A stretch of DNA of 64,000 nt from an uncultured Chloroflexia bacterium (GTDB lineage Bacteria; Chloroflexota; Anaerolineae; JAAYZQ01). The stretch spans positions 608,001 through 672,000 of the forward strand of contig CAVOXA010000014.1 in assembly GCA_963700285.1 (NCBI GenBank), read 5' to 3'. Every line of letters starts with the position of its first letter. Positions within the stretch are counted from its first letter, which is position 1. The notes below the pieces were generated by a model. It did not search any database and was not told the DNA's origin. It saw only the letters and a list, made by a program, of their open reading frames with translations. Shown piece after piece: positions 1,799 through 18,690 of this stretch. The translations under genes and the position numbers were made by a program.

Positions 1799-4033
<2,235 letters not shown>

Positions 4034-4049
4034 GGTGCAGCACCTCCTG

Positions 4050-4281
4050 GTCGGCGGGTGGCCCCGCCCGAACGGTCGCCCGAGTCCCTTCCGGGACGGC
4101 TACTGGCTCAGGCGGGGCCGGTCCTCTTTGGCCGTCCTGACCTCCGGGTCAGGCTGTGATCCTGGGGTCAGGCAGCGACCGGGGCCGCGGTCTGGAGTCC
4201 CCTCAGAAAGGGTGGCGCTGGCCGCTGGTGAGGGATTGCTGGTCACCACCGGCATTCCCCTGGCCATCCTCCCGGCGACTG
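4050..4281 (-). ncRNA. Structured spacer 3' of TR (putative DGR RNA Sp region)
   Basis: Non-coding stretch with hairpins CCTGACC-TCCG-GGTCAGG (4136-4153) and GCCGCTGGTGA/TCACCACCGGC (4221-4253), and a long stem GGCCCCGCC(C/T)GA enclosing GTCCC-TTCC-GGGAC. Confidence 0.55.
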
Positions 4282-4318
4282 CTGGCGACGCGAAACCCGT
4301 TGTTGTTGTTCCTGTTGT
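4282..4318 (-). repeat. DGR template repeat, 3' remnant
   Basis: AC AAC AGG AAC AAC AAC AAC GGG TTT CGC GTC GCC AG, followed by CAGTCGCC (IMH*-like) where both VRs have GGGTCCCC. Confidence 0.9.
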
Positions 4319-4668
4319 GTGGGCGCCCTTGCCCACGCGGCAGGCATAGCTGTCGTGGATCATGCGCGCTTCAAAGATGGGCCAGGTGACCTGCATCAGG
4401 GCGTGATGGACCACCCGGTCGCGGAAGGGCGCGGCAGAAATGCGCCGGGTCTTGGGCTCGCGGATGGTGAAATGGCGATAGGGGCCGGGCTGGTAGGTCT
4501 TTTCTCGCAGCTCCTCGTGCAGCGCCCAGAGGTTCTGCTCCAGGTCCAGCTCAAAGGCGGCCACCGTGGGCCACTTGCGCTTGCCGCCCCGCCGGGCGCG
4601 CCGCCAGGCCAGCCAGAGGTTGTCAAATCGTAGATCTTGGGATAGAGCCCCTTGAATGTCCGGGCCAT
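4319..4668 (-). pseudogene. DGR reverse transcriptase, N-terminal ~115 codons only
   Basis: MARTFKGLYPKIYD..NLWLAWRRARRG..FELDLEQNL..YQPGPYRHFTIREPKTRRISAAPFRDRVVHHAL..DSYACRVGKGAH, then an abrupt switch to TR sequence; one frameshift near 4625; no YxDD. Confidence 0.9.
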
Positions 4669-4704
4669 GCGCTCTCTACCTCAAAAACCGCCAATTCCGA
4701 TCGC

Positions 4705-4724
4705 CTGGGGGGCACGCCCCCCAG
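4705..4724. other. GC-rich perfect inverted repeat downstream of VR2 (candidate DGR homing hairpin/cruciform)
   Basis: CTGGGGGGC-AC-GCCCCCCAG, about 65 nt past the target1 stop. Confidence 0.55.
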
Positions 4725-4740
4725 ACCCCCCAGCAGGGCC

Positions 4741-4789
4741 AGGATTCAAAGGACAGGGTACAGAGCGCAGGATACAGGAGACAGGGTGC
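4741..4789 (-). repeat. 7-bp periodic tract downstream of VR2
   Basis: GCACCCT GTCTCCT GTATCCT GCGCTCT GTACCCT GTCCTTT GAATCCT. Confidence 0.75.
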
Positions 4790-4913
4790 CTATCCGAGGG
4801 GACCCCTGGCGACGCGAAACCCGCCGTTGTCGATCCTGACGTCCGGGTCGTCGCTGAAACGGAACGCGCACCGCACGGAGGAGGCGTCACTGTACCAGGC
4901 ACCGCCGCGCAGG
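4790..4913 (-). repeat. DGR variable repeat VR2 and IMH
   Basis: GTC AGG ATC GAC AAC GGC GGG TTT CGC GTC GCC AG versus TR: 6 mismatches, all at TR adenines; encodes RGGAWYSDASSVRCAFRFSDDPDVRIDNGGFRVARGPLG*. Confidence 0.92.
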
Positions 4914-7900
4914 ACCTTGTACCGTCCCGATCCTGCTCCTCGCGGATCCCGGGCAACGGCATCAGCCGGCGACGGTAGGTATCCTCCGCATACCAATCGC
5001 GGCACCACTCCCAGACGTTGCCGGCCAGGTCCAGCAGCCCCTCGGCGCTGGCGCCGTCGGGAAAGATGCCCACCGGCGTGGTGCCGCTCCAGGCCCAGCT
5101 CCTCGCGTGTTGGCCCTGCCCGCCTGCCACTCGTCGCCCCAGGGGTAGCGGCGGCCCTCCGGCCCCCTGGCGGCCCGCTCCCACTCGGCCTCGGTGGGCA
5201 GGCGGTAGGTCGTGGCCGTCGTCCAGCGCCGCCGTCAGCCAGCGGCAGTAGGCGACGGCCTCGTACCAGGTGACGCCCACCACCGGCTGGTTGGGGCCGT
5301 TGAACCGGTCGTCGTCCCAGTAGGCCGGCCGGTCGCGTACGTCCCCGACCAAGTCCTTGACCGTGCCCTCAGGCAGCCAGACGCCGGCCGCCCTGGCCTC
5401 GGCCCACCAGCGCTCGTCGGCATAGCCGCCGGCCTCCACGAAACAGCGCGAACATGGCGTTGGTCGTCGGGTAGCGGGCCAGGGCAAAGGCGTCCAGCTC
5501 CACCTGGTGCCGCGGCAGCTCGTCTTGTACCAGTCCTTCTCGTCTCGCGCACCAGCCGCTCCACCTCTGCCTCGTCGCTGCCCATCCAGAAGCGGCCGCC
5601 GGGGATGGCGATGAACTCGGGCAGGCACAGTCGGGCCCGTGAAGCGGGGGTCGCCCAGGCGGCCCAGCACGTCGCCGGCCTCGACCCGGGCCGCCACCGA
5701 CGTCGCCGGCGGGTTCCGCCACAGCACCTCGACCAGGCGGCGGGCCAGCTCGTCGCGGGCGCCGGCGTGCCAGCCCACGCGGCGGGGCGGGATCTCGAGC
5801 AGGGCGCGCCCGGCCCAGGCCAGGCCGTAGGCCCGCGGCATCGCCCTCCCCGGGCAGGTCGCCCAGCTCGTCCAGCAGGAAACGCCGCGCCTGCTGCGGC
5901 CACTGCAGCAGGTAGCCGGCGACCAGCAGCAGCACCTCGCGCCACCAGCTCTGGCCCGGCGTGGGCCTGCAGAAATGCGCCCCACTCGGCCGCTGCCGCG
6001 CAGGTTGTCCACCAGGTAGTTGGCGGCCAGGAACTCCTGCACCGTCAGGTGGTCGCCAAAGCTGTAGCCCTCCTCGTGGGCATAGAGCAGGCCGCTGCGC
6101 TCGGCCATCAGCGCCGACAAAGTCGGCCGCCTCGCGCTCGGCGCCTGGCGCTCCTCCAGCCCCAGGTAGTCGGCCATAAAGGGGGCCAGGATGCGCCGCA
6201 CCAGGTCGCGCTCGTCGACCACGACCAGGCCCTGGCGCGCGGCCGCCGTTCCGCTCGCTGCCGCGGCCCCCTGGTGGACCTGGTAGGCGGCGTAGGTCAG
6301 AGGTAGAGGCGGCGGTCCTCCGGCGGGCCAGCGGTCGCTCGCGCAGGCGCTGGGCCGCCTCGGCGCTCTCCTCCTCGTGCAGCCGCTCGCCCAGCAGCAC
6401 GTCCACGTAGGCGTTGTACAGCTCGGCGCGCTGCTCGGGCAGCTCGCGGTCGGCATAGTGGATCAGGGTCGCCGTCCAGACCATCAGCGGCGTCTTGACC
6501 ATCTCTTGCAGCAGCGGCGCGGCGTCGATGCGCGCCAGCAGCAGGCGGGCCGCGCTCGGCGGCCAGCGCCGGGATCCGCCTCCAGCCCGGCGTAGAGGCG
6601 CTTCGACCATCGGCGCCCACTGCTCGCGGGTCAGGTCGCGCACGGTGGCCAGGTGAAAGCGCTCGTCGAGGCGGGTGTTGGCGCCGGCGTAGGCCGCCAC
6701 GCGCGCCGTGACCAGCAGCCGGTTGCCCGGAAAGGCGTCGGCCAGGCCCTCGATGACCTGGCGCATGGCGATGCGGTGGTCGAAGTCGGCCACCTCGTCC
6801 AGGGCGTCCAGCAGCAGCCAGGCCCGTCCCGCGCGCACCAGGCCGCTCGAGAAAGCCGGGCGGCACGCAGTCGCGGGTGCCAGCGCTCAAAGTGGTCGTC
6901 CAGGAAGCGCAGCAGGCCCTCCACGTCGCGGCGGTAGGTCTCCGGCTCGGTCTGGCAGGCGTGCTCGAAGTCGCGCAGGGCGACGATAGACGGGCAGGGG
7001 CAGTCGCCCGGCCCGCTCTCCAGGCCCAGCTCGCGCGCGGGCCAGTCCGGGTCCCGCCTCGGCCAGCACGCTGGCCACCAGGCGCAGCACGGTGCGTCTT
7101 GCCGCAGCCGGCCGCGCCGATCAGGACCAGGTGGCCCGGCGCGGCCAGCACCTCGGCCAGGTCGATGTCGGTGCGGGACAGGTCGCGCTCCACGGCCCCG
7201 AGCTCCGTCTCCTTGCCCCGCAGGCGGCTTTCCAGGTCGGCCCGGCTGAGGTGCAGGTCGAAGCGCAGCGGCACGTAGATGCCGGGCCGGCCCTCGTCCT
7301 CCAGCAGGGAAAAGCCCGGCGGCGCGCCGCGCAGCTCGGAGAGCTGGCGGTAGGGGCGGGTCTCCAGCCGCCCGCACTGGCCGCGCACCACCTCCAGGTA
7401 GGCGGCGACCAGGTCGGGATCCGGCCGGAAAGGGATATCGTCGGCCCCTGTGTCGAGATCAGGCTCAAGCGGGAGCCCGGCCGGAGGTGCCTCGGCCAGA
7501 ATCATGTCGCCCAGTCCCTCCGTGCGGGCCGTGGGTTCCTGAATCAGCCCCCCATGTTCCACGTTCCAGCGACGCAGGCCATCCAGCACGTGGAGCTTGA
7601 GGTCGTCCACGGTGACAAAACCCTTGCCATCACGGTCGGCCGAGCCGCTGAACCCGTCCAGGAGATAGTAGGTAAAGACGCCGTGCTCTTTTTCCTCCCA
7701 CTCCTGGGCAACCTGCTGGGAGGAACTGGCCGCAAGCAGGGCAAAGCCTTCGGCCAATTCGTAGGCGTTGCGGATGAACGCGGGATCGGCCAGGTCCCGG
7801 CCGATCTCAACGCCCGTGTGACAGGCATCGAAGGTGAGCACCAGCCGGCGCGACTTGCTCTGGCGCATTTGCCGCTCAACCCACGACAGCGGCAGGGCCT

Positions 7901-8582
7901 TCTCGGCCAGGGTTGACCTGCGCGTCTCGCGCGTAATCAGTACCGGTACCCCATTCACTGTTTTGCCGTGACAGGAAAAGTGGACCCACAGGAGATCGTC
8001 CGGCCCGGCAACCTGGCAGAGCCGGGCCAGCTCACCCTCCACATTGTCGCGGGTGGGCTGCAGGTGTTCCTCGGCCGCGGCGTCGTGCAGGGCAACGGTG
8101 GTGTAGCCCCGGGCCTGGAGCGCAGCCTCCATGGCCACGACGTCGTTGACACAGAACCGGAGATCAGGAATGGCAGGATCGATGAAATGGTTCACGCCCA
8201 CCAAAAGCGCCCAGCGGGCGCGGATGGGCCCGGCCGGAGTATCAGGCTTTGGCCAAGGAACAGGAGACAGCCGCCGGCCGCCAGGCGGATTTTGCTCCTC
8301 CTGCCCGGTACGGCTGTACAGCGCTGGCTCGAAGCGGGCGTACTGGAGGGGGTTCGCCTCCTTGACATCGGCAAGGAGATCGTCCCAAAGGAGCCGGGTA
8401 CGGCAGTAGTCTATGACCTCGTCGACCATGTCGTCCAGGCCGTGGCCAGGGCCGAATCTAACTACAATGGGTTGGAAGAGTAGACGGTCCTGACAAAACC
8501 GGCGCAGGTCCTGAGGGGTAAAGGCCGCTAGCAATAGCTCTCGGATGGCGCCAACATTGTAGGATGCAGTCTGGTCAGTCAT
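4790..8582 (-). pseudogene. DGR target 1: EAD-like N-terminus + caspase-like C14 peptidase + STAND/NACHT NTPase + FGE-sulfatase/CLec (frameshifted below ~7100)
   Basis: Helical N-terminal AIRELLLAAF..DLRRFC..IDYC..NPLQY; HFSCHG/DACH His-Cys dyad; GAAGCGKT Walker A; LLLDALDEV Walker B; HLTVQEFLAA; [26 protein letters not shown]2; GGAGG before ATG 8582. Confidence 0.85.
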
Positions 8583-8738
8583 GGGGCCTCCCACATGCTA
8601 TGACTTTGCGGAGACGATGGGTCTCAACAGCGCCCAGGCTATCGAGTAGAATCGGAATACCACGGGCACCATCGCCACCCCGGTCGTGCCTCTGGCCGGC
8701 GAGAGCCGCGAGGTTTCTCTTTTCGTCAGGCACCCGGA

Positions 8739-9009: not shown

Positions 9010-9038
9010 TTGCTTGCAGCGCGCTACTATGCTATACT
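9010..9038 (+). promoter_or_regulatory. sigma70 promoter of the glycyl radical enzyme operon
   Basis: TTGCTT-17 nt-TATACT with TG extended -10. Confidence 0.7.
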
Positions 9039-9111: not shown

Positions 9112-11520
9112 ATGACCCAAACCACATCCCAGGCGCCGGAGGCTACAGCCCTTTGGTCCCCGGCCAGCAACCTCTCCCCCCGCGTCCAGCGGCTGCGAGA
9201 CCAGTACTGGGACTTTTACGAACGCGATTACACCAACGAGGTACGCGCCTACACCACCGGCACCTCCTGGGACCAGGTCTATGTCCCCTGGAACTGGACC
9301 AACGTCTCCGAGATGATGATCTTTTTCGCGGGAGCCAAGGCATACCTGCTGGCCGGCGCCAGCCCGATTTCGCTGCCGCCCGGCTTCTGGGACCTGCCGC
9401 TGGTGGTACGGCGGGCCGTCTTTTTCAAGCGCGTCGTGGAGGAGTACCTGCCGGTGCAGATCCTCGAGGGCGAGCTGGTTGTAGGCTCCCACTTTTCCAC
9501 CGCGCTCTCCCGCTCGCTGACCCGATCCGAGGCGCGCCAGTTCGCCAAGATGGAGAAGCGTTTCATAAAAGATGTCCAGCGGCTGGACAGGCTGGGCATC
9601 GGCAACTGCGGCGCCGTGCCCGGCCACCTGATCCCCGACTATGCCCGGGTGCTGCGGGAGGGTTGGCGGGCCATCAAGGCTGAGGCCGACGCCGCGGCCG
9701 GCGACCCGGGAGCAACAACCCAACGGCGGGAGCTGGCCCGGGCCATCTCTATCTGCGCCGATGGCGTGCGCGCCCTGGCCGAACGCTACGCCAGCCAAGC
9801 CGAGGCCTCGGCCAGGAACGAGGCTGACCCGCTCCGCCGGGCCGAGCTGGCCGAGACAGCGCGCATCTGCCGCAAGGTACCCTGGGAGCCCGCCGAGACC
9901 TTTCCCGAAGCCCTGCAAGCCCTGTGGTTGACTCACATGCTGGTCATGGTGGCCGAAGGCTACCCCGGTCCCGGCGTTTCCCCGGGCCGCATCGACCAGT
10001 ACCTCTACCCAACCTTCCGCGCCGGCCTGGACTCGGGCGAACTCACGCGGGAGCAGGCCAGAGAGTGGCTCCAGTGCCTGTGGATCAAGCACAACTATGC
10101 CTACGACTATCAGGGTTGGGTGGGCACCAACCAGGGGATCAACGCCTCTTTTGGCCAGCTCGTGACCTTGGGCGGCATCGATGAGCAGGGCGAGGACGCC
10201 AGCAACGAGTTGACCTTCCTGCTCCTGGAGGTCATCCAGGAGATGAACCTGTTGGAACCCAAGCCCAACGTGCGCCTCCACCAGAATACACCCGCGCCGC
10301 TTCTGGACCGGGTAGTGGACATGGTTGCCCAGGCCCAGGGCAGCCCATTCCTGCTCAACTTTGACGAAAAGTCAATGGCCGGGCTGCGCTGGCAGGGCCT
10401 GCCCGAGGCGGAGCTGTGGGACTATGCGCCCGTCGGCTGCCTGGAGAACACGCTGCAGGGCAACGACCGCTCGGGCACGGTCGACGTCAACCTGAACCTG
10501 GCCAAGGCCGTGGAACTGGCCCTGCACGATGGCCGGGACGCAGCCACCGGCGAGCAGGTTGGCCCGCGCACGGGCGATCCACGGACCTTTGCTACCTTTG
10601 AGCAGTTCCTCGCCGCGCTCAAGGCTCAACTGAGCGCCAGCATGGAGCTGCTGATCGCGGCCAACAATATCGCCGATAGGGGCCGGGCTCGATTCGAACC
10701 CACACCCTACCTGAGCGCGCTGGTAGACGGCTGCCTGGAGAACGGCCTGGACATCACCGCCGGCGGCGCCCGCCACAACTATCTGACCGTCGAAGGGGTG
10801 GCCCTGGCCACCACGGCCGACAGCGCCGCGGCCATCAAAAAGCTGGTCTTTGACGATGGGGCTGTGACCATGGACGAGCTGGTGCGCGCCCTGGACGCCA
10901 ACTTTGAGGGGCATGAAGCGCTGCGCCAGATGCTGCGCTACAAAGCACCCAAGTTTGGCAACGACGATGGCGATACCGACGCGCTGGCCTGCGACATCAG
11001 CCGCCTCTGGACGACAGAGGCGTTTGAGCACGTTGCGCCCGAGACCGGCAAGCGCTACCGGGGCGGCTATCTGTCCTGGAACTACTGGGTGGCCTACGCG
11101 CCCAAAACCGCGGCCACCCCGGACGGCCGCCTGCGCGGCCAGTTTTTGAGCAACGGCGTCTGTCCCGTGAACGGCGCTGACCGGCTGGGGCCCACGGCCG
11201 TGGTCAAGAGCGTGGGGCACCTGGGGCTGGAGACCGCGCCCAACGGCGGGTCGCACACCATGAGCTTCTCACCCAGCCTGCTACAGAGCCCGGAGAACCG
11301 GGGCAAGCTGGCGGCGCTGCTGCGGGCCTATGCCCACGTCGGCGGCACCTGCTTGCAGATCAACGTCGTCGACCCCGGCACCCTGCGGGCCGCGCAGCAA
11401 GATCCAGACGCCTATCGCAACCTGTTGGTGCGGATCACGGGCTATAACGCCTATTTTACGATGCTGGGCAAAGAGATCCAGGACGAGATCATTGCTCGCG
11501 AGAGCCACGGGCTGGGCTAA
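9112..11520 (+). CDS. Glycyl radical enzyme (PFL-like family, substrate unknown)
   Basis: GRIDQYLYP, VGCLE Cys loop, ATPDGR, C-terminal LLVRITGYNAYF glycyl radical motif; GAGGAGG before ATG 9112. Confidence 0.92.
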   Translation: MTQTTSQAPEATALWSPASNLSPRVQRLRDQYWDFYERDYTNEVRAYTTGTSWDQVYVPWNWTNVSEMMIFFAGAKAYLLAGASPISLPPGFWDLPLVVRRAVFFKRVVEEYLPVQILEGELVVGSHFSTALSRSLTRSEARQFAKMEKRFIKDVQRLDRLGIGNCGAVPGHLIPDYARVLREGWRAIKAEADAAAGDPGATTQRRELARAISICADGVRALAERYASQAEASARNEADPLRRAELAETARICRKVPWEPAETFPEALQALWLTHMLVMVAEGYPGPGVSPGRIDQYLYPTFRAGLDSGELTREQAREWLQCLWIKHNYAYDYQGWVGTNQGINASFGQLVTLGGIDEQGEDASNELTFLLLEVIQEMNLLEPKPNVRLHQNTPAPLLDRVVDMVAQAQGSPFLLNFDEKSMAGLRWQGLPEAELWDYAPVGCLENTLQGNDRSGTVDVNLNLAKAVELALHDGRDAATGEQVGPRTGDPRTFATFEQFLAALKAQLSASMELLIAANNIADRGRARFEPTPYLSALVDGCLENGLDITAGGARHNYLTVEGVALATTADSAAAIKKLVFDDGAVTMDELVRALDANFEGHEALRQMLRYKAPKFGNDDGDTDALACDISRLWTTEAFEHVAPETGKRYRGGYLSWNYWVAYAPKTAATPDGRLRGQFLSNGVCPVNGADRLGPTAVVKSVGHLGLETAPNGGSHTMSFSPSLLQSPENRGKLAALLRAYAHVGGTCLQINVVDPGTLRAAQQDPDAYRNLLVRITGYNAYFTMLGKEIQDEIIARESHGLG

Positions 11521-11616
11521 ACCTCCCGCAGGCTTCACGCGGGAGGCAAGGTGGACGCGTCCAACGATCTTGATGGGCGTCGGGGGCCAGACTCGGCAGC
11601 AAGCCTGCGGGAGGTT
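11520..11616. repeat. 16-bp perfect inverted repeat with an alternative short hairpin
   Basis: AACCTCCCGCAGGCTT (11520-11535) / AAGCCTGCGGGAGGTT (11601-11616); CCTCCCGC can instead pair with GCGGGAGG (11539-11546). Confidence 0.65.
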
Positions 11617-11625
11617 GGGCTGGAG

Positions 11626-12960
11626 ATGACACAGCAACTGCACGCCGATGTCATTGTCGTCGGGGCCGGAACCACCGGCGCCTATTTCGCCTGGCGCCTG
11701 GGCCAGGCCGGCTTCCTCACCGTTGTCCTGGAGAAGAAGCGGCTCCTGGATCTGGGCCAGGACATTGACATCTTTCATATGGACGAGGTCCGCTTTGAGC
11801 AGTTTGGCCTGGCCCCGCCCAAAGGCGACGAGCTTTTGGGCCACCATCCTACCGGCCTGGCCTGGTCGCCCGACCTTCAGGTGCGCAACGAGGTCCCCTA
11901 CCCCTTTTATGTCATGTCCAAGCCCGCCTTCCACCGGCGCTTGCTGCGCAACGCGATCGAGGCCCGGGCCGAGATCCTGGAGGAGGTGACCGTCGTCGAG
12001 CCCATCATCGAGGAGGGTACCCTCACCGGCGTGCGGGCTGAGGCCGGTGGCGAAGCGCTGGAGGCCCGGGGCCGCATCGTGGTCGACGCTTCGGGCATCG
12101 ACGGCGTCGTGCGCACGCGGCTGCCGGAGGGCTTTGGCCTTGAGACCGATGCCATCTCTGACGATGACACGCTGTTCGTCTGCCTGGAATTCCGCGATGA
12201 CCTGGGCGAGGGATTTCCAAAAGGGCTCAATTTCTACCCCTATCACAAGGCATTCTGGAACCCCAGCCGGGGAACGGGCTCGATCCTGGGCATTGGGCAG
12301 CCGGGCAGCTACGACTATGCCTGGCAGAAACATGCCGAATGGCGGGAGGCCTACTTTGGCGATCCCGGCCGCGTGGTCAAGCGCACCCAGGGCCGCACAC
12401 CCTACCGCCGCTCCCCCTACTCGCTGGTGGGCGATGGCTTCATGGTCATGGGCGACGCCGCCTTCCAGACCAAGCCCTTTTCGGGGGAAGGCGTCACCTC
12501 CTCCTTCACTGCCTGCCAGATCGCGGCCGAGGTGGCGGCCGAAGCCCTTAGACGCAACGACGTAAGCCGCCGTGCCCTGTGGCCCTACAACGTCCGCTAC
12601 TTTCGCGACCAGGGGGCCAAGTTCGCCTCCCTGTTTGTCCAACTGCCGGCCGCCGCAGAGCTGTCGCGGCGCGAGGTGGACTACCTCTTTCAAAAGGACC
12701 TCATCTTCAGCAGCGAGGACTTTTTCCAGATGAATCTCAATTATGAGACCGAGATGAGCCTGGGCAAGACCCTGTCCATGGGCTCAAAGCTGCTGTGGGG
12801 CGTGCTGACCGGTCGATTCTCCTCGGCCAGCTTCAAGCGGTTGCTGGCCGTGTCCTCCACTGCTGACAAGATCAAATCCCTCTACCGGGAATATCCCGAG
12901 TCTCCGGATCAGTTTGAGCCGTGGCTGGCGCAGGTCAAGCCACTGTGGGGCGAGGCATAA
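11626..12960 (+). CDS. FAD-dependent oxidoreductase, geranylgeranyl reductase-like
   Basis: DVIVVGAGTTGA Rossmann motif, VVDASG, MGDAAFQTKPFSGEGV. Confidence 0.85.
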   Translation: MTQQLHADVIVVGAGTTGAYFAWRLGQAGFLTVVLEKKRLLDLGQDIDIFHMDEVRFEQFGLAPPKGDELLGHHPTGLAWSPDLQVRNEVPYPFYVMSKPAFHRRLLRNAIEARAEILEEVTVVEPIIEEGTLTGVRAEAGGEALEARGRIVVDASGIDGVVRTRLPEGFGLETDAISDDDTLFVCLEFRDDLGEGFPKGLNFYPYHKAFWNPSRGTGSILGIGQPGSYDYAWQKHAEWREAYFGDPGRVVKRTQGRTPYRRSPYSLVGDGFMVMGDAAFQTKPFSGEGVTSSFTACQIAAEVAAEALRRNDVSRRALWPYNVRYFRDQGAKFASLFVQLPAAAELSRREVDYLFQKDLIFSSEDFFQMNLNYETEMSLGKTLSMGSKLLWGVLTGRFSSASFKRLLAVSSTADKIKSLYREYPESPDQFEPWLAQVKPLWGEA

Positions 12961-13757
12961 TGGCCGCGTCCCTTGCTGACGAACCCATCCTGACTCCGCA
13001 GCACACATTGGCCCTGAGAGGCGTAGATGTGACGACGGTCCGCTTTGACCTGGCCGTGTTTTGCTTCCGCGGCCCGCTTGCGAGCAGGCTGGTGATCGAG
13101 GCTCTGGGGGCAGGCAAAGCGGAATGGCCCCTGCTATACGGTATTCCATGTCATAGCGCTACCATTGACGGTTTGCGTGTGGCCGTCCTGCCCCAAGTGA
13201 TCTATGGCGGGCCTGTGACGGCCATCTTGCTCGAAGAGCTGGCCTGCCTGGGGGTCAAGACAGCCATCGGCGTTGGTGCGGCCGGCTCGCTGATTAGCGA
13301 CGCCCACGTGGGCCAGGTTTTCATCGCCGAGAGGGCGGCCGTCCAGGACGGAACGTCGCGCGAGTATTCGCGCTCGAACAGCCACGAAGCGTGGGCGAAT
13401 CCCAATCCTCAGCTTCTGGCGTTGACCCAGGCGCTGGCAGCCAGGGAGAATGCGATTCCACTCCCGGGCGCAGTCTGGACCACCGACGCCCTCTACCAGG
13501 AACGCCCATCCAGCGTGGCGTGCTGGCAGCAAGCGGGCGCGGATCTCGTGAATCTCGAGTGCGGCCCCTTCTACGCCGTCGCCAGGGCGGTAGGTATCCG
13601 TGCCGTGTACCTGGGTCTGGTCACCGACCATGTGTCGGCGGAACGGGGCTGGCAGGCCAAACACTGGGGCCGGAAAAGTGCCGCCGACCCGCTGATTATG
13701 CGTGTCGTGTGTGGCATTGCGGACGCCATGGCAAGAGAGGAACACTCACATGTGTGA
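12960..13757 (+). CDS. Nucleoside phosphorylase family protein (PNP/UDP fold)
   Basis: GGPVTAILLEELACLG, GAAGSL, DGTSREY, WTTDALYQE, LVNLEC; ATG overlaps the upstream TAA. Confidence 0.8.
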   Translation: MAASLADEPILTPQHTLALRGVDVTTVRFDLAVFCFRGPLASRLVIEALGAGKAEWPLLYGIPCHSATIDGLRVAVLPQVIYGGPVTAILLEELACLGVKTAIGVGAAGSLISDAHVGQVFIAERAAVQDGTSREYSRSNSHEAWANPNPQLLALTQALAARENAIPLPGAVWTTDALYQERPSSVACWQQAGADLVNLECGPFYAVARAVGIRAVYLGLVTDHVSAERGWQAKHWGRKSAADPLIMRVVCGIADAMAREEHSHV

Positions 13758-15123
13758 CACCCTGGTCGCGGTTGGCGAGGCCACGGCAGACGGCAGCGTC
13801 ATCCTGGCCAAGAACAGCGACCGGCAGCCCAACGAAGCCCACCTGCTGGCCCACGTCCCCCGCGCCCAACACGCGCCCGGGTCAAGGGTCCAGTGCACCT
13901 ACATTGAGGTACCCCAAGTTGGCGAGACCTTTGAGGTGCTGCTGTCCAAGCCCTTCTGGATCTGGGGCTGCGAGATGGGGGCCAACGAGTACGGTGTGGC
14001 CATTGGCAATGAGGCTGTGTTCACCAGGGAGCCCTACGACAAGGGGCCCGGCCTGATCGGCATGGACTTTATCCGGCTGGCGCTGGAGCGGTCCGCTACG
14101 GCACGCCAGGCGCTGGACGTTATTGTCAATCTCCTGGCCGAACACGGCCAGGGCGGCAACTGCGGCTTCCACCACAAAGAATTCTATCACAACTCGTTCA
14201 TCCTCGCCGACCCAGGCGAAGCCTGGGTACTGGAGACAGCGGGCAAGTTCTGGGCCGCCGAACAGGTGCGCGACGTGCGCGCTATTTCCAATGGCCTGAC
14301 CATTGGCGCAGAGTGGGATCTGGCCTCGCCAGGGCTGGTGGCGCATGCCATCGAGAAGGGCTGGTGCCGGTCCCGGGATGACTTTCATTTCGCCCGCTGC
14401 TACTCCGACCTGGTGATGACACGGTTCAGCGCTTGCCGGACTCGCCAGTGCCGGTCAACAGAGTTGCTGGAAGCGGAAAGAGGCCGCATCTCTGTGGGTA
14501 CGATGATGGCCACCCTGCGCGACCACGGGCCCCAGGCGGAGCAGGATCCGGCGTGGAACCCAGGCCGGGGCTGGTTGATGGACACGATCTGCGTGCATGC
14601 CGGGTTTGGCCCGACGCGCCCCGGCCAGTCTACAGGAGCGATGGTCGCCCATTTGAAGCCTGACCTGCCGGCCACCTGGTTGACCGGAACCTCGGGCACC
14701 TGTACCGGTATCTTTAAGCCGGTGTACCTGGGTGGCAGCGGGCTGCCAGATCTCGGGCCTGAGCCTGAGGGCACCTTCGATACCGGCTCGCTGTGGTGGA
14801 GCCACGAGCGGCTGCACCGGGCGGTCATCCGTGACTATGCGGCGCGGCTAGCCCTCTACCGGGAGAGCAGGGACTCTTTGGAAGCTGCGTTCCTGTCCGA
14901 AGCGGCAGAGATGTACCTGCGGCACCATGGGCAGAGCGCGGGGGAACGCGTAGAGGCTCTGAGTGCATTCACCGCTGGCTGCTTTCACAGAGCCGCTGGG
15001 GCCACTGCCCACTGGGCTGAGGCTGTGTTGTCGAAACCGGTCCAACACCGGCCACCAATCCTGTTCGCCACGTCCTGGGACAGGTTCAACAGGCAGGCGG
15101 ATTTCGCCGAGGGCCTACGTTGA
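13750..15123 (+). CDS. Peptidase C69/secernin-like Ntn hydrolase
   Basis: MCDT N-terminal nucleophile, AKNSDRQPNE, WGCEMGANEYGVAIGNEA, YHNSFILAD. Confidence 0.88.
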   Translation: MCDTLVAVGEATADGSVILAKNSDRQPNEAHLLAHVPRAQHAPGSRVQCTYIEVPQVGETFEVLLSKPFWIWGCEMGANEYGVAIGNEAVFTREPYDKGPGLIGMDFIRLALERSATARQALDVIVNLLAEHGQGGNCGFHHKEFYHNSFILADPGEAWVLETAGKFWAAEQVRDVRAISNGLTIGAEWDLASPGLVAHAIEKGWCRSRDDFHFARCYSDLVMTRFSACRTRQCRSTELLEAERGRISVGTMMATLRDHGPQAEQDPAWNPGRGWLMDTICVHAGFGPTRPGQSTGAMVAHLKPDLPATWLTGTSGTCTGIFKPVYLGGSGLPDLGPEPEGTFDTGSLWWSHERLHRAVIRDYAARLALYRESRDSLEAAFLSEAAEMYLRHHGQSAGERVEALSAFTAGCFHRAAGATAHWAEAVLSKPVQHRPPILFATSWDRFNRQADFAEGLR

Positions 15124-15155
15124 TGCTTGACTCTTGAAGGGTTAGGGAGAACAGA

Positions 15156-16100
15156 TTGACCGAGATGACTCTGACAGGCACCACCTTCAACATCCAGCGG
15201 TTCAGCACCGAGGACGGCCCTGGCATCCGGACCACGGTCTTTTTCAAGGGCTGCCCGCTGCGCTGCGCCTGGTGCCACAACCCCGAGGGGATCTCACCCC
15301 GGCCGGAGTTGATGTGGTACGATGTGCGCTGCATTGCCGCCCGCGACTGCCTGAGCGTCTGCCCGGTGGATGCCCTGGATCTGACGCCGCAGGGCATGCG
15401 CATCGACCGCCAGCGCTGTGATGCCTGCGGCGCCTGCACCGACGCCTGTCCCGCCGCCGCCCTGGAGGTGATTGGCCAGAAGTGGACGCCTCATGAGCTT
15501 TTTTCCGAGGTGATAAAGGACCGGATCTTTTTCGAAACCTCCGGCGGTGGCGTGACCCTCTCCGGCGGCGAGCCGATGATGCAGGCTGATTATCTCCTGG
15601 AACTGCTGCCACTGCTCCGCGAGGCCGAACTCCATGTGGCGCTGGACACTTGTGGCGCGGCGGCCTGGCCCCGCTACGAGGGGATCCTGCCCTCGCTTGA
15701 CCTAGTCCTCTACGATCTCAAGTTCTTTGACCCGCGCAGCCACCTGGTCGCCACCGGCTTTGACAACGGCGCCATTCTGGACAACGCCCGCCGCATCGCC
15801 GCCGCAGGCATGCCCCTTTGGATCCGCACGCCCGTGATCCCGGGCTACACCGCCGATCCGGCCAATATTTCAGCCCTTGCCGACTTTATCAAGGCCGAAC
15901 TCCCTACCGTCGAGCGCTGGGACCTGCTGGCCTACACCAACCTGGGCGGACCCAAGTACCAGCGCCTGGACCTTGCCTATGCACTGGAGGGCATTCCGCT
16001 CCTGACACGCAACGAGATGGAGGCGCTGCACGCCGTGGCGGTCCAGCGCGTGCCCGTGGCCGTGTGGTCCGGCGCGACCCAGCAGGAATCGCTGAGCTGA
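15156..16100 (+). CDS. Glycyl radical enzyme activase (radical SAM with ferredoxin insert)
   Basis: DGPGIRTTVFFKGCPLRCAWCHNPE, CDACGACTDACP, GGGVTLSGGEP. Confidence 0.93.
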   Translation: MTEMTLTGTTFNIQRFSTEDGPGIRTTVFFKGCPLRCAWCHNPEGISPRPELMWYDVRCIAARDCLSVCPVDALDLTPQGMRIDRQRCDACGACTDACPAAALEVIGQKWTPHELFSEVIKDRIFFETSGGGVTLSGGEPMMQADYLLELLPLLREAELHVALDTCGAAAWPRYEGILPSLDLVLYDLKFFDPRSHLVATGFDNGAILDNARRIAAAGMPLWIRTPVIPGYTADPANISALADFIKAELPTVERWDLLAYTNLGGPKYQRLDLAYALEGIPLLTRNEMEALHAVAVQRVPVAVWSGATQQESLS

Positions 16101-16114
16101 AGGGAAGGAGTATC

Positions 16115-17086
16115 GTGAGCCTGAATCAGGCCGGACTACAACTGCTCGAGGCATTCGAACGGGGTCTGGACCCAAGGTACCCGGAGCGCAGCCAGATACC
16201 GGCCCACGTCCTGGGCTATGGCGAAATCAGCACCGTCTTTGCCATCCAGGCGGAGGGTCTAGAAGGTCTGGCCTTCAAACGCTTGCCCCTGTTCCAGGAT
16301 GCGGCAGAGGTGGAACGGTATCGCGCTGCTTATGACGAGTACAACCGCCTGCTCCAAACGGAGATTGGCCTGAGCCTGCCGGCTCACAGTTGCGTGGAGC
16401 TGGAGCATGGTGATCGCCCCATCTTGTACATCATCCAGCAGCAACTGCCCTCAGCCAGCATCGGACACCACGCGCTGCACGTGCTTCCCCGCGACATGGT
16501 GCGCTTTCTGGTCCGGCGCGCCCTCCAGGAGATGCGCCTGGTTTGGGACTTTAACCAGCGCCAGCAACGCCTGCAGGTGGCCCTTGACGGCCAGATCTCG
16601 AACTGGTCCATCCAGGGCTTTGATCCCCAGAACCCGCAGGTGGCCCTGGACACGAGGCTGGCCTACCTGGACACAAGCACGCCCCTCTTTCGCGTCGATG
16701 GGGTGGAACAACTGGATCCGGAGTTGTTTCTGAGGAGCGCGCCATCTTTCCTGGCCTGGATCCTGCGCCTCTTCTTTGTGGAAGATGTGGTGAACCGCTA
16801 CTATGATTTTCACCGGGTGGCGGTGGACCTCGTGGCCAATTTCTACAAGGAACAGCGACCGGAACTGGTCCCCGATATCATCATCGAGGTCAACGATTTC
16901 TTTGCGGGGGAAGCCGCCGCACTGGAGCTCGAGCCCCTCACCGAGGAGGAGGTCCATTCCTACTATCGTGAGGATGCCCTGATCTGGAGGCTGTACCTGG
17001 CCATGCGCCGCATCGACCGTGCCCTCCGCACACGGATCTTGGGAAAAGAGTATCCCTATATCCTGCCCGGACAGATCGCGAGATAG
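16115..17086 (+). CDS. Conserved hypothetical protein (DUF6206-like) with protein-kinase-like motifs
   Basis: GTG after AAGGAG; LGYGEISTV, AFKR, LDGQISNW, YLDTS. Confidence 0.65.
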   Translation: MSLNQAGLQLLEAFERGLDPRYPERSQIPAHVLGYGEISTVFAIQAEGLEGLAFKRLPLFQDAAEVERYRAAYDEYNRLLQTEIGLSLPAHSCVELEHGDRPILYIIQQQLPSASIGHHALHVLPRDMVRFLVRRALQEMRLVWDFNQRQQRLQVALDGQISNWSIQGFDPQNPQVALDTRLAYLDTSTPLFRVDGVEQLDPELFLRSAPSFLAWILRLFFVEDVVNRYYDFHRVAVDLVANFYKEQRPELVPDIIIEVNDFFAGEAAALELEPLTEEEVHSYYREDALIWRLYLAMRRIDRALRTRILGKEYPYILPGQIAR

Positions 17087-17106
17087 CAGCAGTGGGAGGC
17101 AACCGC

Positions 17107-17922
17107 ATGTCCCTGTTAGCGAACGAACCCGGCCTGCTTGAGGCCCTCAGCCATGAAATGACGCCCAAGTTTCTGGCCACCCGTTCCGCCAGCGGCGTGC
17201 CAAACATCGTACCCTGTACTTCCATCATGCCAGCCGGGGACACCGAGGACCGGCTGATCCTCGGCAATTTCCTCCTGCACAAGTCGGTGGACAACCTGGA
17301 CGCCGACCCGCGGGTGGGCATCCTGGTCATGACCACTGATCTTCAAGGCTGGGTGCTGCAGGGGAACTTTCAGGGCTGGCAGCGGGCGGGTGACTATGTG
17401 GATCGCCTCAACAACACTGAACTGCTGCGCTACAACGCTTATACCGGCATCCGCAACGCTGGCATCATCCAGGCGGGAGCGGTGCTGCGGCGCTTTCAGA
17501 TCTCCAAGCCGCGGGTCCTGGCCGACTATTTGTTGGCTCGTGCATCGCGCGTCCCGGCGGCGCTCGAAGGGGCCACGGCCATGCCCCTGCCGGTGCGAGA
17601 GCGATTTAGCCCCATGACCGCCGTGAGGGCGCTGGCCTTTCTGGATAGCCAGGGGTACCCGCTGGTCGCTCCCGTGCTTTCTCTCCAGCCGGCCGGGGAG
17701 AGCGCCCTGGTTTGTGCGCAAGGCCAATTTTCTGACCTCCTGGCCCCACTGGCACCGGGCGACCCCGTAGCCGCCTCCCTGCTGACGCTCGACGTCGTCT
17801 CTTTCCAGGCCAAGGGCCGATGGTTGGGGGAACACTACCTGCTCGGAGCCCGGCTGGGGGCCATGTCTGTGCAGGCCGTCTATGCCGGAGGGCCACCCAT
17901 CCCCGGCCGGCAGGTAGCCTGA
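17107..17922 (+). CDS. Pyridoxamine 5'-phosphate oxidase-like FMN-binding split-barrel protein (two domains)
   Basis: KFLATRSASGVPNIVP..KSVDNLDADPRVGIL and second unit LAFLDSQGYP..SFQAKG. Confidence 0.7.
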   Translation: MSLLANEPGLLEALSHEMTPKFLATRSASGVPNIVPCTSIMPAGDTEDRLILGNFLLHKSVDNLDADPRVGILVMTTDLQGWVLQGNFQGWQRAGDYVDRLNNTELLRYNAYTGIRNAGIIQAGAVLRRFQISKPRVLADYLLARASRVPAALEGATAMPLPVRERFSPMTAVRALAFLDSQGYPLVAPVLSLQPAGESALVCAQGQFSDLLAPLAPGDPVAASLLTLDVVSFQAKGRWLGEHYLLGARLGAMSVQAVYAGGPPIPGRQVA

Positions 17923-18071: not shown

Positions 18072-18320
18072 ATGAAAAGAGAACCCGGTCTTTCTACTTT
18101 TTCCATCGTCGGCCACGATCCAGGGGCCCAGGAGTGGGGTATCGCCGTCCAGTCCAAGTTCCTGGCCGTAGGAGCCGTGGTCCCCTGGGCGCGCGCCGGG
18201 GTTGGAGCCGTGGCCACCCAATCCTACGCCAACACCGCTTTTGGTCCAGAAGGCCTGGCCCTGATGGCCCGTGGGCTGACGGCTGAAGAAACGCTCGGTC
18301 AACTCGTCGCCGGGGATGAG
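18072..18320 (+). pseudogene. Truncated DUF1028 (Ntn-hydrolase-like) gene
   Basis: [39 protein letters not shown]; similarity ends after about 80 codons. Confidence 0.75.
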
Positions 18321-18690
18321 CTGAGCCGGTGCACGCCAGAAATCCTGACACCCGAATCAGTCCGCCGCATCGTCACGCTCTGCGCGACCCATCCTCACTG
18401 GAAGCGGGAAGAAGTGTATCAACACCTGCAAGGCCAGAACGTGAGTGTTAGTCGGCGTCAAGCGCGCCAGGCCATGGAACGAGGTGCACCTCCTCGCTGG
18501 ACAAGCCTACGCCTGGGGATACAGCACCTAGCGGCGAGTGGGCCAGGCGCTGCAGGTCAGTGAAATGACCATCTACCCTCTACAACTGGCTGGGTACGAC
18601 CTAAGCCGCATGCCGATGACCTGGTTGTGTCGGGGATACAGCCTGGAACGGCCGATGAAACTGGACGGCGCAGATGTCCCCAGCCTGTGA
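18321..18690 (+). mobile_element. Probable transposase/IS remnant interrupting DUF1028
   Basis: [34 protein letters not shown] resembles a transposase HTH; a further fragment [13 protein letters not shown] follows; no IRs found. Confidence 0.35.

Follow-up and report, generated by a model that had tools for sequence, protein, structure and literature searches.

We describe here a glycyl radical enzyme (GRE) encoded in a 64,000-nucleotide stretch of DNA from an uncultured Chloroflexia bacterium (contig CAVOXA010000014.1, positions 608,001 to 672,000 of the forward strand; hereafter "the window", to which unprefixed coordinates refer), and the two genes that accompany it in other genomes. By sequence, this GRE belongs to none of the GRE families tested, and it is strictly co-inherited with a tandem split-barrel protein (SB), probably a GRE subunit, of a type that has no described precedent among these enzymes. 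The GRE, its activase and SB form a conserved unit across bacteria and archaea, and we are somewhat inclined to read this cassette as encoding a two-subunit GRE, with SB docked over the likely substrate channel, that would act on a hydroxylated, non-anionic substrate by 1,2-elimination or ring opening. The three core genes are as follows.

9112..11520, plus strand: GRE of an uncharacterised clade (802 aa; PF02901 and PF01228 above cut-off)
15165..16100, plus strand: GRE activase with ferredoxin insert (TIGR02494, 322 bits against a cut-off of 174)
17107..17922, plus strand: SB, tandem split-barrel (PNPOx/FMN-binding-like; FMN, flavin mononucleotide) protein, predicted GRE subunit (weak PNPOx match in Pfam/NCBIfam; model pLDDT 92)

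A three-gene unit in bacteria and archaea

A genome scan returned 514 pattern matches, 298 of which were confirmed as GRE relatives, and the best 80 loci (55-85% identity; denoted L plus a number) were retained. All 80 derive from metagenome-assembled genomes (MAGs), assigned to Chloroflexota, Planctomycetota, Deltaproteobacteria/Myxococcales, Acidobacteriota, Actinomycetota, Clostridia and archaea (Bathyarchaeota, Thorarchaeota and Promethearchaeota). The activase was found in 62 of these best 80 loci and SB in 54, and the other genes of the window operon were nearly absent (C69 amidohydrolase 3, GGR-like 2, DUF6206 2, phosphorylase-fold 0). Dropping the 30 loci with less than 4 kb of downstream sequence left 50, among which activase and SB each occurred in 46 and the remaining genes in 3, 2, 2 and 0, respectively. 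Where a locus lacked SB, the gene was present elsewhere in the genome in all five genomes tested (three of the four long SB-less loci and two short ones); SB was also found in four of five archaeal genomes.

The same association appeared at the level of whole genomes. Across 301 genomes of the phylum, GRE scores leave an empty interval between 736 and 445 bits, and the nine genomes with a clade GRE (at least 736 bits) were the same nine that carried a full-length SB, with seven further genomes giving only weak, mostly single-barrel SB matches. Among 41 relatives (the source genome and 40 others), SB accompanied the clade GRE in 11 of 11 genomes, and two more SB-positive relatives, 75-77% complete, have a contig-cut GRE just upstream (54% and 43% identity). 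Related genomes are not independent, and the locus set (L) and genome set (G) may overlap and are counted separately. Within loci, SB comes right after the GRE in L120, from which the activase has moved away, and in L121, and pairwise identities across 48 loci link SB to the GRE (partial r = 0.67) rather than to the activase (0.09), a comparison that is descriptive only. A quick tree of 41 rows, which contains no characterised enzyme, places the 35 clade rows together (SH-aLRT 99) and leaves six other GREs of the same genomes outside; it shows this grouping only.

The activase is a dedicated radical SAM activase by its TIGR02494 score, and its CX3CX2C motif is present in 56 of 56 clade activases. 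The second Cys of its first auxiliary cluster motif is Ala here, as in 34 of 56 clade members (Cys in 6).

Locus L008 is titled Acidobacteriota, yet by GRE and gene order it falls among Dehalococcoidia loci, so it is possibly misbinned. A sister subclade (L114-L122; ~840 aa, 45-48% identity) has the same cassette and retains the motifs of the active site, differs at SB Lys59 and GRE residues 660-664, and may use a different substrate. The source genome encodes a further GRE with a GCVE loop (C1:1433411-1435810; no activase by tblastn on the same contig) and a divergent GRE that has a CCHGP motif and is served by a separate activase (C10:2070751-2074088). A second uncharacterised GRE of ~950 aa (L094:7343-10240, L012:15180-18008, fragment L003:4011-4607) lies in or just after the cassette; it has a GCVE loop, is 40% identical to the clade GRE and carries an N-terminal SCP2 lipid-binding domain, a fusion that suggests a GRE acting on a long-chain substrate.

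Active site and predicted complex

The GRE carries its Cys loop as GCLE (residues 442-445) and its Gly loop as RITGY (774-778), and no adjacent Cys-Cys, the pyruvate formate-lyase motif, occurs anywhere in the protein, as the preliminary description of this DNA had noted. Gly777 and Cys443 are invariant across 69 sequences, as is C443-L-E445, and His172, Cys443, Glu445 and Gly777 are all kept. With a C-terminal Gly loop, a central Cys loop and a ten-stranded barrel (TM 0.81), the protein is a PFL-like GRE. Its AlphaFold2 model (pLDDT 88) is about as close to the glycerol and propanediol dehydratases as to HypD and CutC (TM 0.80-0.82, 26-30% identity) within a range of 0.76-0.82 for eliminases and isomerases overall; Archaeoglobus PFL2 (2f3o) scores like the eliminases, at 29% identity. 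The GRE falls under every curated NCBIfam cut-off: 488 against 678 bits for the general PFL2-3 model, 440 against 1100 for HypD, 417 against 1000 for HpsG, 386 against 1050 for CutC, 273 against 1100 for IAD, 244 against 1150 for HPAD and 80 against 994 for pyruvate formate-lyase (TIGR01255). The expectation that it would match no characterised enzyme was thus borne out. GCLE had also been offered as separating this GRE from CutC and the diol dehydratases (GCVE); this it cannot do alone, because it fits the same CXE motif.

A CXE Cys loop marks GRE eliminases and isomerases (PMC13450708, a 2026 review; this and the other papers are cited from excerpts), and C443-L-E445 is such a loop. With residue roles taken from PMC13450708, PMC7077986 and PMC8473560 and positions assigned by alignment, His172 corresponds to His164 of glycerol dehydratase (GD) and His160 of HypD, so that His172, Cys443 and Glu445 agree with the catalytic core of the eliminases; these signature motifs persist in the ~48%-identical sister subclade. 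The anion-binding Arg positions of HypD and IslA are Ala168 and Gly652 here, and the pocket positions include Pro287 (HypD Asp278), Gly288, Asn460 (the beta6 Tyr), Trp656 (the beta8 packing site) and an invariant Asp458, with Tyr284, Trp656 and Tyr658 as conserved aromatics. Comparison of the active site with HypD, CutC and IslA, as earlier proposed and here run by alignment, therefore finds the shared core residues but none of the specificity residues. From these positions we infer a roomy pocket (larger than that of glycerol), polar and non-anion-binding. Since such a pocket lacks the known anion-binding Arg residues, a polyol, an amino alcohol or a lipid-derived head group is suggested as substrate.

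The SB model (pLDDT 92) comprises two similar beta domains. Barrel 1 superimposes on 3in6 (Z 16.1, rmsd 2.7, 126 residues aligned), HupZ (Z 15.6; profile match E=1.6e-6) and the Desulfovibrio FMN-binding protein (Z 14.2), and its Lys59 and Asn63 are kept in 96% of 52 homologues. The preliminary label "double FMN" thus fits the first barrel, an FMN-type split barrel, but not the second, which lacks the Lys/Asn motif. Since Lys59 and Asn63 are conserved in barrel 1 and both barrel 2 and the sister subclade (at the Lys) deviate, flavin binding is possible at one candidate site. No tandem split barrel spanning both SB domains was found among solved chains (barrel 2 alone was not searched), and no SB fusion among 7999 longer candidates, which is weak evidence.

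SB is predicted to bind the GRE directly. A model of GRE residues 14-752, as a monomer, with SB residues 8-268 scored 0.71, against 0.00 for the best of three controls. Of solved pairs, 116 of 157 reach the mark for this score, as do 2 of 215 mismatched ones; this calibration applies only roughly here, custom alignments having been used. Repeated runs share at least 86% of contacts, with a partner pLDDT of at least 82. On the GRE side, the predicted contacts involve a clade-specific helix (65-82), Tyr284-Pro285, Tyr333 and residues 657-664, and on the SB side near-invariant Tyr109-Tyr112, Pro160, Thr227 and Pro263-Pro264. The SB interface is more conserved than the rest of the protein (0.65 vs. 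0.55; p = 0.017 relative to randomly drawn sets of residues). Substrate-channel elements of GREs include alpha8' and the cap helix (PMC13450708). In the alignment, Trp656 is the counterpart of HypD Thr645 on beta8, with a helix coming next at 660-665; it is by this strand-helix order and alignment that residues 657-664 would correspond to alpha8', and the position of SB over the channel is therefore likewise inferred. To our knowledge, no complex of this kind has been solved, and none was among our structure-search matches.

In the mechanism that we propose, the activase would install a radical on Gly777, and the resulting Cys443 thiyl would abstract hydrogen from a carbinol carbon, with Glu445 and His172 acting as acid-base as in glycerol dehydratase and HypD; the neighbouring C-O or C-N bond would then break. 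SB would gate the substrate channel in the manner of the benzylsuccinate synthase (BSS) beta subunit and might carry one flavin. Several points weigh against this reading. The decarboxylase HPAD also has a Glu two positions after its Cys (Cys503/Glu505). The sister subclade has lost SB Lys59, so flavin binding is weakened as an expectation. The predicted GRE interface is no more conserved than the rest of the protein (0.74 vs. 0.76, p = 0.66), the complex was modelled as a monomer lacking GRE residues 753-802, and the cap-helix region (335-348) has a pLDDT below 50, which makes the shape of the pocket uncertain. Activity, substrate, cofactor and binding are all at the level of prediction, and the accessory genes diverge in their hints (amide hydrolases, acyl-CoA dehydrogenase, SCP2) and therefore name no substrate.

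Other readings and the accessory genes

SB could be more than a gate, namely a flavoenzyme coupled to the GRE that reduces or oxidises a reactive product (imine, enal or aldehyde) or a radical intermediate at the channel mouth, with net redox chemistry, a reading that we regard as doubtful. The proximity of barrel 1 to FMN-binding proteins (Z 14-16), the conservation of Lys59 and Asn63, and a near-invariant Arg108-Tyr112 loop within the predicted interface all agree with it, but Lys59 is lost in the sister subclade, barrel 2 has no motif, and the flavin site is itself a candidate. It also draws on an acyl-CoA dehydrogenase orthologue (66-94% identity) that adjoins the cassette in three phyla, at the following positions.

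L008:6879-8165, acyl-CoA dehydrogenase orthologue
L017:3166-4440, the same
L053:8288-9520, the same
L076:14544-15773, the same

This orthologue occurs in five of nine clade genomes and three of 292 others (8 of 301 overall), but the source genome has no acyl-CoA dehydrogenase of this type above 37% identity. The protein fits no curated family (the best is acryloyl-CoA reductase, 243-260 against 640 bits), and no common pathway was found among its other neighbours. In a broader and equally tentative form, a flavoprotein-capped GRE would couple radical cleavage to flavin redox on the product and, in sediment bacteria, Bathyarchaeia and Asgard archaea, would degrade head groups derived from lipids or amides (glycerol ethers or N-acyl amino alcohols, for example). 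If true, this would give an archaeal-type PFL-like GRE its first assigned function; according to the review (PMC13450708), no archaeal PFL-like GRE has one so far.

Chemistry other than elimination, by a decarboxylase or by a fumarate-adding hydrocarbon activator in which the split barrel replaces the Fe-S subunit, seems unlikely. Small subunits have been described only in decarboxylases or succinate synthases (excerpts of PMC13450708), and divergent GREs of similar MAGs (Chloroflexi, Bathyarchaeota and Thorarchaeota), a group associated with Archaeoglobus PFL2 and Vallitalea enzymes that may or may not include this clade, have been proposed to add alkanes to fumarate (excerpts of PMC6472368); the conserved aromatics Tyr284, Trp656 and Tyr658 would also suit such a pocket. 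On the other hand, the HPAD and IAD scores given above are far under their cut-offs, BSS, MASS and HPAD rank far under the eliminases by sequence (BSS and MASS by structure too), and His172 with Glu445 matches the eliminase arrangement. The window operon, moreover, has no room for Fe-S subunit genes, because its gaps measure at most 105 nt.

The preliminary description had taken all seven genes of the locus as one anaerobic radical pathway, for example of amide hydrolysis, phosphorylation or phosphorolysis, radical elimination and flavin-dependent reduction. Its account of the locus itself holds well: seven intact open reading frames lie on the plus strand (starts set from ribosome-binding sites), tightly spaced or overlapping with gaps in gene order of 105, -1, -8, 41, 14 and 20 nt, and Pfam and NCBIfam uphold the family labels. 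GC content at third codon positions is 0.74-0.85 across the seven genes, which may be co-transcribed, as judged solely from their close spacing. Of the single promoter proposed, a plausible element is visible, but it lies below the threshold of a consensus promoter scan, which did not list it. No bacterial microcompartment (BMC) shell gene is present at the locus, again as described, and BMC shell genes sit on other contigs of the source genome. Besides the core genes, the locus contains the following.

9010..9038, plus strand: putative sigma-70-type promoter with extended -10 (TTGCTT-17-TATACT with TG), picked by eye
11626..12960, plus strand: GGR-like FAD oxidoreductase, accessory, family-restricted (NF041080, 200 bits against a cut-off of 580)
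12960..13757, plus strand: nucleoside-phosphorylase-fold (PNP/UDP) protein, recent passenger, without the motif Arg (PF01048)
13750..15123, plus strand: C69 Ntn amidohydrolase with N-terminal Cys, accessory, recurrent in Anaerolineae (PF03577 above cut-off)
16115..17086, plus strand: DUF6206, probable kinase-like fold, accessory (PF19709)

As a general pathway, the seven-gene set is largely refuted, and we consider a single pathway improbable. The conserved neighbourhood that had been anticipated exists for GRE, activase and SB, but only these three travel together; the seven-gene unit was rejected, its extra genes occurring in 0-3 of 80 loci and the phosphorylase-fold gene in none. Unrelated genes are inserted between GRE and activase in other loci (a HepT/nucleotidyltransferase pair, a PD-(D/E)XK nuclease, a nitroreductase, a WD40 protein), C69, DUF6206 and DUF1028 occur together without a GRE in L097, and the aminotransferase partner of DUF6206 lies on another contig of the source genome, apparently frameshifted. 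What the pathway reading retains is the tight spacing and a recurrent arrangement in a minority of Anaerolineae-type loci: C69 and DUF6206 lie inside the operon in L007, L031, L095 and L096, with C69 between GRE and activase in L095 and L096 and the order GRE-C69-activase-DUF6206-aminotransferase-SB in L031, L095 and L096; C69 also occurs in L024, and both genes share the activase/SB contig in L094 (GGR-C69-activase...DUF6206-SB). Because this order recurs, amide hydrolysis may feed the GRE in the Anaerolineae lineage, the part of the amide-hydrolysis proposal that survives a C69 count of just 3 in 80 loci. Further inserts among the core genes include acyl-CoA dehydrogenase, creatininase and adenosine deaminase, and amide or peptide hydrolases account for 9 of the 28 inserted families, compared with 5 of the 72 proteins in the flanks (Fisher p = 0.0025, from a post hoc classification by hand with unequal units). 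Neighbouring genes thus hint in two directions, towards amide/peptide hydrolases and towards lipid or acyl-CoA genes; among the latter, SCP2 domains occur as separate genes in L043 and L120 (clustered homologue in L047) and fused to the second GRE in L094 and L012.

That SB instead donates electrons to the activase, as a flavodoxin substitute rather than a GRE subunit, is very improbable: its gene usually directly follows that of the activase, whose first auxiliary cluster motif so rarely keeps its Cys, but SB stays beside the GRE where the activase moves (L120), its identities track the GRE, and the GRE-SB model passes as a prediction.

The accessory genes differ in standing. Among the 41 relatives, homologues of the GGR-like gene were found in 7 of 11 GRE-positive genomes and 7 of 30 without a detected clade GRE, those of C69 in 6 of 11 and 8 of 30, and those of DUF6206 in 9 of 11 and 8 of 30. 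The phosphorylase-fold gene has no close match in the 40 relatives besides the source genome; a single match, at 32%, was found among those 40 (2 of 41 genomes including its own). In nucleoside phosphorylases of the DeoD/Udp type, the Arg of the IRxG-type motif binds phosphate; here, in alignment with the solved 1jds and 1odi, Gly replaces it, and the protein is far under all NCBIfam cut-offs. A phosphorolysis step was accordingly rejected, the gene being unique to the source genome among those searched and the motif Arg missing. The GGR-like and phosphorylase-fold genes are passengers; C69 and DUF6206, accessories at the level of the lineage, may serve to release or process substrate.

The kinase-like label of DUF6206 stands on its motifs (G36, K55 and D186 invariant, D158 and N163 at >=90% in 73 sequences), but a PDB profile search did not confirm the fold, its best kinase match being a MAP kinase at E=0.34. 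Longer DUF6206 forms carry no second Pfam domain (21 of 21), and a literature search for DUF6206 gave no match. The gene adjoins a class III aminotransferase in seven examined loci (L031, L095, L096, L100-L103), apart from the GRE in four of them, and the L095 aminotransferase is nearest to putrescine aminotransferase; DUF6206 with this putrescine-aminotransferase-like gene looks like a separate, unstudied two-gene module.

Two further features flank the operon. Downstream, a DUF1028 gene (18072-18563) is broken after ~83 residues by an HTH_32 insertion-sequence-like piece with further copies in the source genome; DUF1028 is full-length downstream of SB in L007 and L094. Upstream, on the minus strand (2376-8594), a frameshifted run of reading frames encodes EAD7 with a caspase-like domain, an NTPase-like stretch with an FGE-sulfatase domain and a KAP NTPase, with a reverse-transcriptase-like fragment spotted by eye at 4100-4668. 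The run resembles a conflict or diversity-generating-retroelement (DGR-type) locus, broken or mis-assembled.

Comparison with known systems

The closest structural matches of the clade GRE are glycerol dehydratase (1R8W/1R9D) and the propanediol dehydratases (5I2G, 9RCO), at TM 0.81-0.82. They share equivalents of His164, Cys433 and Glu435 and a long-type activase with it, but are only 28-29% identical, barely align over the N-terminal ~150 residues and have no described subunit. Further residues compared with glycerol dehydratase are its His281, Ser282, Tyr339, Tyr640 and Asp447. In the clade GRE, the first two are Pro287 and Gly288, Tyr339 is Gly348 or Leu350 (the alignment is ambiguous), Tyr640 is Leu654, and Asp447 (beta6) aligns to Val457 ungapped or to the invariant Asp458 with a one-residue shift.

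HypD (6VXC), the trans-4-hydroxy-L-proline dehydratase, has the same fold, CXE motif and His160 equivalent, but scores well short of its cut-off, and its Arg156, Asp278, Asp339, Tyr450 and Thr645 become Ala, Pro, a non-Asp residue, Asn and Trp. CutC, the choline trimethylamine-lyase, likewise shares fold and CXE and gives the best single-sequence PDB score; it differs in its low family score, in Asp216 (His172 here) and Tyr506 (Asn460), and in the lack of BMC genes at the clade locus. The sulfonate-acting IslA/IseG/HpsG and HpfG models score 417 and 386 against 1000 bits, and the IslA-type sulfonate anchors (two Arg, one Gln), mapped through HypD, are Ala168, His172 and Gly652. Pyruvate formate-lyase is set apart by the missing adjacent Cys-Cys and its 80 bits.

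Small subunits are listed for only three GREs, all of them iron proteins with an enigmatic role, and FMN, pyridoxamine and heme go unmentioned in the excerpted text of that review (PMC13450708). In BSS, MASS and HPAD, the subunits are HiPIP- or rubredoxin-like, as opposed to a tandem split barrel, and the catalytic subunits share only 22-24% identity with the clade GRE; the BSS beta subunit likewise sits over the channel, if our GRE-SB model is right. We found no paper on a GRE-split-barrel pair in the open literature; subscription papers or supplements could already contain the clade. For SB itself, the nearest proteins (Desulfovibrio-type FMN-binding proteins, Swol_0183 and HupZ) are single barrels that match barrel 1 (Z 14.2-16.1, rmsd 1.9-2.7), as against two barrels per chain, the second without Lys/Asn, ~18% identity and a GRE-bound position in the model. 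The clade is highly conserved (55-85% identity) across bacterial and archaeal phyla, and therefore marks a widespread anaerobic reaction without a name. In practice, the SB gene should be co-expressed with that of the GRE, and the complex model points out residues for mutation.

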